Below are positions 59,104 through 62,436 of a DNA stretch of 64,000 nucleotides, in pieces. The notes below the pieces were generated by a model. The model made no database searches. It was not told the origin of the DNA and saw only the letters and a program-made list of their open reading frames with translations. Numbering within the stretch: position 1 is the stretch's first letter; the number at the start of each line of letters is the position of its first letter. The stretch is from Escherichia coli (GTDB lineage Bacteria > Pseudomonadota > Gammaproteobacteria > Enterobacterales > Enterobacteriaceae). The stretch lies in the NCBI RefSeq assembly GCF_009931435.1, contig NZ_CP043414.1, one strand, 5' to 3'. Made by a program: the position numbers and the translations under genes.

Positions 59104-60414
59104 ATGTTTGATTCGACTTTAAATCCGTTATGGCAGCGTTACATCCTCGCCGTTCAGGAGGAAGTAAAACCGGCGCTGGGATGTACTGAACCAATTTCAC
59201 TGGCGCTGGCGGCGGCGGTAGCTGCGGCAGAACTGGAAGGTCCGGTTGAACGAGTAGAAGCCTGGGTTTCGCCAAATCTGATGAAGAACGGTCTGGGCGT
59301 CACCGTTCCTGGCACGGGAATGGTGGGGCTGCCGATTGCGGCGGCGCTGGGAGCGTTAGGTGGAAATGCCAACGCCGGGCTGGAAGTGCTGAAAGACGCA
59401 ACTGCGCAGGCAATTGCCGATGCCAAAGCACTGCTGGCGGCGGGGAAAGTCTCAGTTAAGATCCAGGAACCTTGCGATGAAATCCTCTTCTCACGCGCCA
59501 AAGTCTGGAACGGTGAGAAGTGGGCGTGTGTCACCATCGTCGGTGGGCATACCAACATTGTGCATATTGAGACGCACAATGGCGTGGTGTTTACCCAGCA
59601 GGCCAGTGTAGCAGAGGGCGAGCAAGAGTCGCCACTGACGGTGCTCTCCAGAACGACGCTGGCTGAGATCCTGAAGTTCGTCAATGAAGTGCCGTTTGCG
59701 GCGATCCGCTTTATTCTCGATTCTGCGAAGTTAAATTGTGCGTTATCGCAGGAAGGCTTGAGCGGTAACTGGGGGCTACATATTGGCGCGACGCTGGAAA
59801 AACAGTGTGAACGCGGTTTGCTGGCGAAAGATCTCTCTTCATCCATTGTGATTCGTACCAGCGCGGCATCCGATGCGCGTATGGGCGGCGCTACGCTTCC
59901 GGCAATGAGTAACTCCGGCTCGGGTAACCAGGGGATCACTGCAACAATGCCTGTGGTGGTGGTCGCAGAACACTTCGGGGCCGATGATGAACGGCTGGCG
60001 CGTGCGCTGATGCTTTCGCATTTGAGCGCGATTTACATCCATAACCAGTTACCGCGTTTGTCTGCGTTGTGTGCCGCAACGACAGCAGCAATGGGGGCTG
60101 CTGCTGGGATGGCATGGCTGGTGGATGGGCGTTATGAAACCATCTCGATGGCGATCAGCAGTATGATCGGCGATGTCAGCGGCATGATTTGCGATGGTGC
60201 GTCCAACAGCTGCGCGATGAAGGTTTCGACCAGTGCTTCGGCTGCGTGGAAAGCAGTGTTAATGGCGCTGGATGATACCGCTGTGACCGGTAATGAAGGT
60301 ATTGTGGCGCATGATGTTGAGCAGTCGATTGCCAACCTGTGTGCGCTGGCAAGCCATTCGATGCAGCAAACGGATCGGCAGATTATCGAGATTATGGCGA
60401 GCAAGGCCAGATAA
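59104..60414 (+). CDS. cyuA: L-cysteine desulfidase (UPF0597 / YhaM)
   Basis: 436 aa; Cys-containing motif …[13 protein letters not shown]…. Confidence 0.85.
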
Positions 60415-60429
60415 ACGCCTGGTTATGGG

Positions 60430-60545
<116 letters not shown>

Positions 60546-60546
60546 T

Positions 60547-60711
60547 TTACGCGGTAGCTTCATCCTCGGCTAAACGCGTTTCAGCATCCGCGACAATGGC
60601 TTCCAGTTCGCTCAACATCTCTTCATAGCCAAAATTATTGGCGGTGCGAGCCGGTTCCTTCGCCACCACGGGCTTCACTGGCTGACGCTTTTTGGCCGAT
60701 TTTTTACTCAT
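60547..60711 (-). CDS. yhaL: small basic protein YhaL (~54 aa), not in the supplied ORF track
   Basis: minus-strand ORF reading M(M)SKKSAKKRQPVKPVVAKEPARTANNFGYEEMLSELEAIVADAETRLAEDEATA*; fits the yhaM-yhaL-yhaK order. Confidence 0.6.
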   Translation of the reverse strand: MSKKSAKKRQPVKPVVAKEPARTANNFGYEEMLSELEAIVADAETRLAEDEATA

Positions 60712-60733
60712 CATCATCTCCCTGTAAAAACAA

Positions 60734-61435
60734 CTAGACAGGCAAATCTATCAGCAAAGCGCGCAGTGGGGAATCGGCAACCAGCGTAATGTTAGCCTCG
60801 TCACGAATAAACGCCCCATCACCGCAGGTCAGCACCGCTTTCTCTTCATGATGCGTAAGCGCATGAAATTGCCCGTGAATCGATTGCAAATACGCGCGTG
60901 GCCCATGCAACTGGAAATTCGCACTTTCGCCTTTGTCTAGCACGATATGATGCAGCCACACTTGCTGGCGCAACTGCAGGCTTCCCATCGCCCCCTCTGG
61001 CGAGGCGATTAATTGCTGCTTGCCCATATCAAGCGCCAGTTTTTGAATCAGCGGATTCTCTCGCTGCGGGCAGGCATCCAGCCAAAGCTGCATCCGTGTT
61101 AACGGTTTGTCTTTGCTGAGATTGTGTTCGCTATAGCTGATACCCGGCTGGGTAGAGAGCAGCAACGCTTCACCTGCGTAGGCCTGAATATGATTGCCTT
61201 CGCTGTCACGATACTCAGCTTCTCCATCCAGAATCACATTTAAAATATCGACTTTGGGATAGGTTCGTGGCTGGAAGGCGGCACCTGGGGCCAGAACTTC
61301 CTGGTTAAGCACACGCAGGGAGGCATAACCTAACAATTTCGGGTCGAAGTAGTGTCCAAAGGAAAAAGTATACCGGGCCTGCAACCATCCGTAGTCTGCT
61401 TGTCCACACTGCCTGGCAGTTCGGGTAGTAATCAT
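60734..61435 (-). CDS. yhaK: pirin-like cupin protein YhaK
   Basis: 233 aa bicupin-type ORF. Confidence 0.85.
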   Translation of the reverse strand: MITTRTARQCGQADYGWLQARYTFSFGHYFDPKLLGYASLRVLNQEVLAPGAAFQPRTYPKVDILNVILDGEAEYRDSEGNHIQAYAGEALLLSTQPGISYSEHNLSKDKPLTRMQLWLDACPQRENPLIQKLALDMGKQQLIASPEGAMGSLQLRQQVWLHHIVLDKGESANFQLHGPRAYLQSIHGQFHALTHHEEKAVLTCGDGAFIRDEANITLVADSPLRALLIDLPV

Positions 61436-61539: not shown

Positions 61540-62436
61540 ATGGCCAAAGAAAGGGCATTAACGCTGGAAGCACTACGGGTTATGGATGCGATCGATCGCC
61601 GGGGCAGTTTTGCGGCGGCGGCGGATGAGCTGGGACGCGTGCCTTCCGCACTTAGCTACACCATGCAAAAACTAGAAGAAGAGCTGGATGTGGTGTTGTT
61701 TGACCGCTCGGGCCATCGCACCAAATTCACCAATGTCGGGCGAATGTTGCTGGAGCGAGGGCGCGTTTTGCTGGAAGCCGCAGATAAACTGACTACCGAT
61801 GCGGAAGCCCTCGCGCGCGGTTGGGAAACGCATCTCACCATTGTGACTGAGGCGCTGGTACCGACACCCGCCTTTTTCCCGTTAATCGACAAACTGGCGG
61901 CAAAAGCCAATACCCAACTGGCAATCATCACCGAAGTGCTGGCGGGGGCGTGGGAACGGCTGGAGCAGGGGCGCGCGGATATTGTTATCGCGCCGGATAT
62001 GCATTTTCGCTCCTCGTCGGAGATCAACTCGCGCAAACTCTATACCTTAATGAACGTCTATGTTGCCGCGCCTGATCACCCGATTCATCAGGAGCCGGAA
62101 CCGTTATCTGAAGTGACGCGCGTGAAATATCGTGGAATTGCGGTGGCGGATACCGCTCGTGAGCGCCCGGTGTTGACCGTACAGCTGCTGGACAAACAGC
62201 CGCGCTTAACGGTGAGCACGATTGAAGATAAACGTCAGGCATTACTGGCGGGGCTTGGCGTGGCGACGATGCCGTATCCGATGGTTGAAAAAGATATTGC
62301 GGAAGGACGGTTGCGTGTCGTCAGCCCGGAATCGACCAGCGAGATCGATATTATTATGGCCTGGCGTCGTGACAGTATGGGGGAAGCGAAATCCTGGTGT
62401 CTGCGGGAAATTCCCAAACTTTTTAGCGGAAAATAA
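61540..62436 (+). CDS. yhaJ: LysR-family transcriptional regulator YhaJ
   Basis: 298 aa; N-terminal HTH …FAAAADELGRVPSALSYTMQKLE…. Confidence 0.88.
   Translation: MAKERALTLEALRVMDAIDRRGSFAAAADELGRVPSALSYTMQKLEEELDVVLFDRSGHRTKFTNVGRMLLERGRVLLEAADKLTTDAEALARGWETHLTIVTEALVPTPAFFPLIDKLAAKANTQLAIITEVLAGAWERLEQGRADIVIAPDMHFRSSSEINSRKLYTLMNVYVAAPDHPIHQEPEPLSEVTRVKYRGIAVADTARERPVLTVQLLDKQPRLTVSTIEDKRQALLAGLGVATMPYPMVEKDIAEGRLRVVSPESTSEIDIIMAWRRDSMGEAKSWCLREIPKLFSGK

Follow-up and report, generated by a model that had tools for sequence, protein, structure and literature searches.

The minus-strand open reading frame (ORF) directly downstream of yhaK in the window, a stretch of 64,000 nt from Escherichia coli (contig NZ_CP043414.1), is almost certainly a real coding gene, and that gene is yhaL. 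It belongs to the known and annotated core genes of E. coli and is not a new discovery, since the interval is annotated in RefSeq and is present in 5405 of 5426 complete E. coli genomes. Taken as a whole, the results are very probably best explained by this core gene; its most likely role is that of the second cistron after yhaK, encoding a small protein that would bind a partner via a helix. What the present analysis adds is the family-wide linkage of yhaL to yhaK, the presence of a single invariant helix, and a borderline similarity of this helix to one of XseB, the small subunit of exonuclease VII (ExoVII).

Identity and occurrence of yhaL in E. coli

The ORF listing contained a minus-strand frame at 60547..60717, 56 aa in length when counted from its first ATG, which ends with a TAA stop codon at 60547. 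The frame has three in-frame ATG codons (60717–60715, 60714–60712 and 60711–60709), and from the third of these it constitutes a 165 nt coding sequence of 54 aa plus stop (Table 1). It is located between the stop codon of the upstream 233-codon ORF yhaK (TAG, 60736–60734) and REP-type inverted repeats at ~60404–60538, and direct reading of the minus strand gave ...CTGTCTAG TTGTTTTTACAGGGAGATGATGATGAGTAAAAAATCG... within the region 60200–61100 and ...ACAGGGAGATGATGATGAGTAAAAAATCG... near the yhaL start. No ORF of ≥30 aa was listed on the opposite strand across yhaL. An earlier sequence-only reading of the window had reported a yhaL-like minus-strand ORF of ~54 aa at 60547–60711, placed between REP elements and yhaK, with three consecutive in-frame ATGs preceded by a GGAG-like sequence. 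These claims were borne out in full: interval, neighbours and ATG codons are as described, the GGAG-like sequence is the GGGAG at 60722–60718, and the peptide quoted was identical to the translation from the ORF listing (MMMSKKSAKKRQPVKPVVAKEPARTANNFGYEEMLSELEAIVADAETRLAEDEATA). As that reading had also remarked, the ORF was missing from its ORF track because the track was cut off at 60 aa.

Table 1. Coordinates of yhaL and neighbouring features in the window
Feature	Positions	Strand	Basis
yhaL coding sequence, 54 codons and TAA	60547..60711	-	ORF listing, RefSeq yhaL annotation, dN/dS
Two extra in-frame ATGs before the conserved start, Escherichia-specific	60712..60717	-	Start-region alignment
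Shine-Dalgarno sequence GGGAG, 6 nt before the third ATG	60718..60722	-	Direct reading; conserved in 10 species
YhaL residues 1–25, basic tail, predicted disordered, variable in sequence and length	60637..60711	-	Alignment, AlphaFold, charge count
YhaL residues 27–53, conserved acidic helix FGYEEMLSELEAIVADAETRLAEDEAT, constrained core	60553..60633	-	Invariant residues, entropy, AlphaFold
yhaK-yhaL spacer, 22 nt, without terminator	60712..60733	-	Terminator scan, gap survey
yhaK, pirin-like bicupin, upstream gene of the presumed operon	60734..61435	-	Pfam Pirin and Pirin_C_2; RefSeq
yhaJ, LysR-type activator, divergent from yhaK	61540..62436	+	Pfam HTH_1 and LysR_substrate
REP-type palindromic elements between convergent yhaL and cyuA, predicted 3′ end of the yhaL transcript	60415..60546	.	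Inverted repeats, sub-threshold Rfam matches

In E. coli K-12 MG1655 the same 165 nt interval is annotated in RefSeq as yhaL (b3107, NP_417578.2, 'uncharacterized protein YhaL'), within the gene order yhaH-yhaI-yhaJ-yhaK-yhaL-cyuA-cyuP, and a megablast search of the 5,426 complete E. coli genomes returned the region under the names 'yhaL: protein YhaL', 'yhaK: pirin family protein' and 'cyuA'. The window and K-12 genes have the same length and the same place between yhaK and cyuA, with 52 of the 54 residues being identical; the two differences (S5 in the window versus L5 in K-12, and N25 versus K25) are both in the variable tail. The window protein also has the features of the YhaL orthologous group, namely this identity, a position behind yhaK with yhaJ divergent, and the motif EML.ELEAI. 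The coding sequence plus spacer was single-copy in the 5405 genomes, and full-length yhaK was likewise found in 5405 genomes, the two numbers being compared as totals. None of the 5,426 genomes contained an identical copy of the 187 nt segment 60547–60733, with the best match at 98.9%. One E. coli database entry of 136 aa (P0078) has the C-terminal part of YhaK fused to YhaL in one predicted protein; this fusion is probably not natural but the result of an error in sequencing or gene calling, since its upstream part is a corrupted YhaK sequence.

Little has been published on the gene itself. A 2024 survey of the y-ome lists yhaL as Uncharacterized and 'followed by repeat sites' (PMC11551758), a literature search with yhaL, b3107 and yhaKL did not find a functional study, and neither the 'yhaOMKJ' papers nor the YhaJ/DNT paper, which deal with this locus, ever mention yhaL.

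Selection on the reading frame and translation start

The dN/dS check which the sequence-only reading had put forward for this frame was performed using codon alignments of ten orthologues, and showed strong purifying selection on yhaL, with values of 0.06–0.16 within Escherichia, versus 0.03–0.10 for yhaK in the same genomes. Comparison of the window with K-12 showed 2 non-synonymous and 7 synonymous differences in yhaL. Synonymous divergence from K-12 was higher in yhaL (dS 0.23) than in yhaK (0.13), the yhaL value being derived from just these 7 differences.

Variation at the three codon positions was then compared in 81 sequences (80 species loci and the window) over the 22 codons around the core motif. 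The summed column entropy was 8.5, 6.7 and 28.8 bits for codon positions 1, 2 and 3, respectively, with third positions being approximately four times more variable than first or second positions, and eight residues (M, L, E, L, E, A, I and A, with up to six codons each) were invariant in all 81 sequences. As third-position variation is high while the core residues are invariant, this pattern fits selection on the YhaL peptide, and not on an RNA or DNA element. The ORF is more than a chance frame, because it is conserved as coding in ~80 species.

The start-region alignment contained a GGGAG or AGGAG sequence 5–9 nt before the codon preceding Ser-Lys-Lys in 10/10 species. Salmonella yhaL has just one ATG, which is closely preceded by an in-frame TAA, while other Escherichia have AAG-ATG-ATG or AAG-ATG-GTG at this position, the Escherichia start region reading ATGATGATG (or AAGATGATG / AAGATGGTG). 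The start codon is GTG in Klebsiella and Raoultella and TTG in the Citrobacter freundii group, with the following Ser-Lys-Lys being retained (read at window positions 60709–60717 and at loci L003, L005, L009 and L031–L035). The Shine-Dalgarno spacing and the start regions of Salmonella and other Escherichia thus point to the third ATG (60711) as the conserved start, as annotated, and the triple ATG is a peculiarity of Escherichia. At least 17 genera share the frame, its start and the Shine-Dalgarno sequence, and we infer that translation from the third ATG yields a YhaL protein of 54 residues. The literature searched, which included ribosome-profiling studies, gave no record of YhaL from ribosome profiling or proteomics, and the supplements of the YhaJ studies did not contain a yhaL entry. 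A promoter-like match at 60728–60699 was rejected as internal promoter, as it overlaps the start codon and such matches occur at background level (2 found versus 1.3 expected).

Distribution and architecture of the YhaL family

A word-indexed search detected YhaL only in Escherichia, Salmonella, Citrobacter, Klebsiella indica and relatives of Dryocola. An exhaustive HMM search of 1.84 billion cluster representatives (E ≤ 0.001) gave 78 matches, almost all of which were small YhaL-like proteins, mostly of 35–90 aa, and the 38 matches retrieved all had the same layout. The three long matches were all set aside on their Pfam content, with P0129 and P0143 recognised by inspection as unrelated tandem repeats of the LQELRAIV- and LTELLAIV-type, and P0106 having just unrelated weak Pfam matches. 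Scanning one genome per species (100,044 species) identified 83 yhaL loci, and every named one belongs to the Enterobacteriaceae (Escherichia, Salmonella, Citrobacter, Klebsiella, Raoultella, Kluyvera, Kosakonia, Phytobacter, Trabulsiella, Atlantibacter, Pluralibacter, Buttiauxella, Cedecea, Dryocola and others). The YhaL family is confined to this bacterial family.

Members have a basic N-terminus, typically MSKKxxKK, which is followed by a variable linker rich in Pro, Ala, Val and Gln and by the C-terminal helix motif [FL]G[YF][ED][ED]ML.ELEAIV.[DE]A..RL.EEE, of which EML.ELEAI is present in the window protein and is invariant in the family alignment and the 81 sequences. Kosakonia and some 'Enterobacter sp.' lineages (L047, L051, L052, L054, L059, L072 and L077–L079) have a non-basic N-terminus (e.g. 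MSSTMNFMTDPTQQ...) in place of the basic MSKK tail, with an unchanged C-terminal helix. Superficieibacter YhaL (L022, L024) has an extension of ~12–14 residues after the end of the acidic helix (...EEDVIPDGAALSRTV), which was the sole length variation seen at the C-terminus. The Pfam scan of the window protein and 34 family members did not assign a family to YhaL, and scans against PHROGs and PADLOC (E ≤ 1) gave no phage or defence-system family. Profile searches of PDB sequences returned either nothing or just a gyrase fusion, which was dismissed as a chance match (E 4.7).

An AlphaFold2 model based on a 34-sequence alignment predicts no regular structure for residues 1–28 (pLDDT 62–76) and a single helix for residues 29–53 (pLDDT 91–95), the latter containing the invariant acidic sequence FGYEEMLSELEAIV.DAE.RL. 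Charge is unevenly distributed, with 8 K/R and 1 D/E in residues 1–25 (net +7) and a net charge of -8 in residues 26–54. In its best heptad register the helix has hydrophobic residues at 6/7 a/d positions (Y29, L33, L36, V40, A43 and L47). The hydrophobic moment of the whole helix was no higher than that of shuffled sequences (0.17 versus 0.16), so that an interaction face is backed by the heptad register only. There is no hydrophobic segment in YhaL able to span the membrane, and the protein is predicted to be a soluble, cytosolic mini-protein. The helix is likely to represent the functional core of YhaL, since it is unchanged in those Kosakonia and Enterobacter lineages in which the basic N-terminus has been lost.

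Genomic context and regulation

In 79/80 species loci a full-length yhaK ends just upstream of yhaL on the same strand, with yhaJ divergent, and the exception is located at a contig end. In contrast to this strict linkage, cyuA is downstream of yhaL in just about half of the 80 loci, with other genes at this position including murA in Dryocola and an unrelated gene in K. indica. The gap between the yhaK stop and the yhaL start is 18–35 nt (mode 24; 56 loci with an automatically assigned start and Shine-Dalgarno sequence), and no terminator-like site was detected on the coding strand of the spacer in the window. Downstream of yhaL there is a clean hairpin terminator in Dryocola, K. indica and Salmonella, and in Escherichia there are REP elements. 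In the window, REP-type units occupy the whole interval between yhaL and cyuA (60404–60545), and their inverted repeats (e.g. GCCGGATAAGGCGT/ACGCCGCATCCGGC) gave sub-threshold matches to the REP-derived Rfam family naRNA4 (42 and 30 bits versus a gathering score of 59.5).

The LysR-type regulator YhaJ acts on the yhaK promoter by binding and activating it, hydroquinone is a strong inducer of this promoter, and deletion of yhaK strongly enhances induction of yqjF, to a 66-fold higher level (PMC5031710; PMC7315121). YhaK has been proposed either to assist YhaJ as a co-factor or to act enzymatically on compounds resembling quinols (PMC5031710). Based on the synteny, the short gap, the lack of a terminator in the spacer and this regulation of yhaK, yhaL is predicted to be the distal cistron of a YhaJ-controlled operon, and we consider its co-transcription with yhaK likely, with none of the papers found naming a yhaKL operon. 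Transcription of yhaL is supported by two reports. In a 2025 RNA-seq survey, yhaL and cyuA are among the convergent gene pairs with overlapping transcripts ('excludons') that occur in at least half of 58 MG1655 transcriptomes (PMC12288877), and this overlap may lead to interference between the yhaK-yhaL and cyuPA transcripts. The other report describes upregulation of yhaL in long-term stationary phase (PMC7406224). A list of 50 genes from a fluoroquinolone evolution study includes a structural variant in yhaL, to which that list attaches no specific phenotype, and which we regard as anecdotal.

Proposed role of YhaL

We propose that YhaJ would activate the hydroquinone-inducible yhaK promoter and give rise to a transcript with yhaL as second cistron, which would end at the REP elements in the window, or at intrinsic terminators in other genera. 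The third ATG with its Shine-Dalgarno sequence would then direct synthesis of the 54-residue YhaL. Less certain are the subsequent steps, in which the acidic, heptad-patterned helix may dock on a partner protein, with the dispensable basic tail being a flexible appendage; the likeliest partner would be the obligate neighbour YhaK, or else YhaJ, in the response to quinones and oxidants. Synteny is the sole pointer to YhaK or YhaJ as a partner, be it physical or functional, and we put this partnership forward tentatively.

Small accessory proteins encoded by the last cistron of a bacterial operon can bind a larger protein, and YhaL resembles this general class in its size, in having a single conserved helix as its sole structured element, and in the gene having its own ribosome binding site shortly after the upstream stop codon. 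In contrast to that class, the partner of YhaL is putative. Many of the characterised small proteins of E. coli are embedded in the membrane, which YhaL is not, and at 54 aa it is just above the 50 aa usually taken to define small proteins.

Resemblance to XseB and alternative explanations

The only NCBIfam matches recurring in the YhaL family were to two models of the exonuclease VII small subunit XseB (13 and 11 of 34 members, best E 2.5e-4), and the scores of YhaL (13.4–13.8 bits) did not reach the cut-offs of 71 and 92 bits. Alignment of YhaL with enterobacterial XseB using hhalign paired NFGYEEMLSELEAIVADA with PASFEKALSELEQIVTRL at the start of XseB helix 1 over 18 columns (probability 59%, P 9e-5), and although its score of 25.4 exceeded that of all 600 column-shuffled controls (mean 9, maximum 21.9), the P-value is no longer significant once corrected for the ~19,000 families among which XseB was selected. 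Both proteins start with M-x-K-K and have an acidic helix with [FY]E..L.ELE.IV (XseB: PF02609; PDB 8TXR, 1VP7). However, YhaL has one helix (29–53), with which the protein ends, whereas XseB forms a helical hairpin; YhaL carries a variable linker of 15–25 residues before the helix, and the xseB locus is unrelated to that of yhaL. The distribution also differs, as ExoVII is a nuclease described as widespread among bacteria (PMC10835039), while YhaL is restricted to the Enterobacteriaceae. Helix 1 of XseB appears to be the closest known sequence motif to the YhaL helix, and may possibly be its evolutionary source. We did not accept YhaL as a member of the XseB family, given that it scores below every curated threshold, has no hairpin and is encoded at an unrelated locus.

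This resemblance raises the possibility that YhaL is a truncated relative or mimic of XseB, which binds the long XseA helix or XseB itself and modulates assembly or activity of ExoVII upon induction of the YhaJ regulon, a scenario which we consider improbable. It would account for the XseB models being the only NCBIfam matches, for the hhalign score and for the shared M-x-K-K start, and one JGI record designates the E. marmotae orthologue as 'exonuclease VII small subunit'. Furthermore, the XseB hairpin grips the XseA helix through a hydrophobic face flanked by complementary charge, an arrangement that tolerates varied target sequences (PMC10835039). Next to the low bit scores, the 18-column extent and uncorrected significance of the similarity and the single predicted helix, this scenario is opposed by the lack of a PF02609 match among the 34 members at thresholds up to E 10, by BLASTP of YhaL versus XseB giving no alignment, and by neither the profile search of PDB sequences nor the exhaustive HMM search recovering XseB. 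None of the 78 matches in the exhaustive HMM search was long enough for an XseB of ~80 aa, barring fragments that are YhaL variants, and yhaL has no genomic link to xseA or xseB. An elaborated version, in which YhaL is an Enterobacteriaceae-specific mini-protein derived from XseB helix 1 within the YhaJ regulon, and acts as obligate small subunit of YhaK (as a metal-free pirin) or as stress-induced modulator of ExoVII to couple quinone stress to the repair of DNA-protein crosslinks, is very unlikely; if true, loss of yhaL might account for part of the phenotypes published for yhaK deletions.

Alternatively, YhaL could be functional and unrelated to YhaK or YhaJ, for instance by associating with nucleic acids, ribosomes or the membrane via its basic tail, and use the yhaK transcript just for its expression. 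The opposite charges of the two halves of the protein and the upregulation in long-term stationary phase are compatible with such a role, a Salmonella transposon study lists yhaL among genes under selection (PMC3487940), and a YhaL–YhaK interaction is deduced solely from gene order. We nevertheless find this rather unlikely, since yhaK is the constant neighbour of yhaL while the gene on its other side varies, and the basic tail is the least conserved part and is lost in Kosakonia lineages, in contrast to the invariant helix; the Salmonella result is weak, as a 165 nt gene offers few transposon sites. A non-functional ORF, either a chance frame beside a REP or one whose translation matters just for stability of the yhaK mRNA and not for its peptide, is extremely unlikely. 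The short length, the lack of a Pfam family, the adjacent repetitive REP DNA and the absence of a protein-level record in the literature searched would suit such an ORF, but this reading is already contradicted by the selection pattern, in which the amino acids of the helix are invariant in 81 sequences despite saturated synonymous change. It also conflicts with the conservation of frame, start and Shine-Dalgarno sequence across genera and with the absence of a competing ORF on the opposite strand, and the variability of third positions runs counter to the core being an RNA or DNA element.

Implications

The preferred reading is that of an annotated gene following yhaK, which is listed as b3107 in the K-12 reference annotation and was missed by the ORF track through its 60 aa cut-off. 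The yhaL gene is constrained as strongly as yhaK and is inseparable from it across the family, and yet is uncharacterised. Since the interpretation of yhaK deletion phenotypes (e.g. the 66-fold higher yqjF induction) did not take into account the gene located 22 nt downstream of yhaK, polar effects on yhaL are possible in these mutants. Studies of YhaK and YhaJ should therefore include yhaL and check for such polar effects, and yhaL is a cheap and reasonable target for work on the YhaJ regulon.
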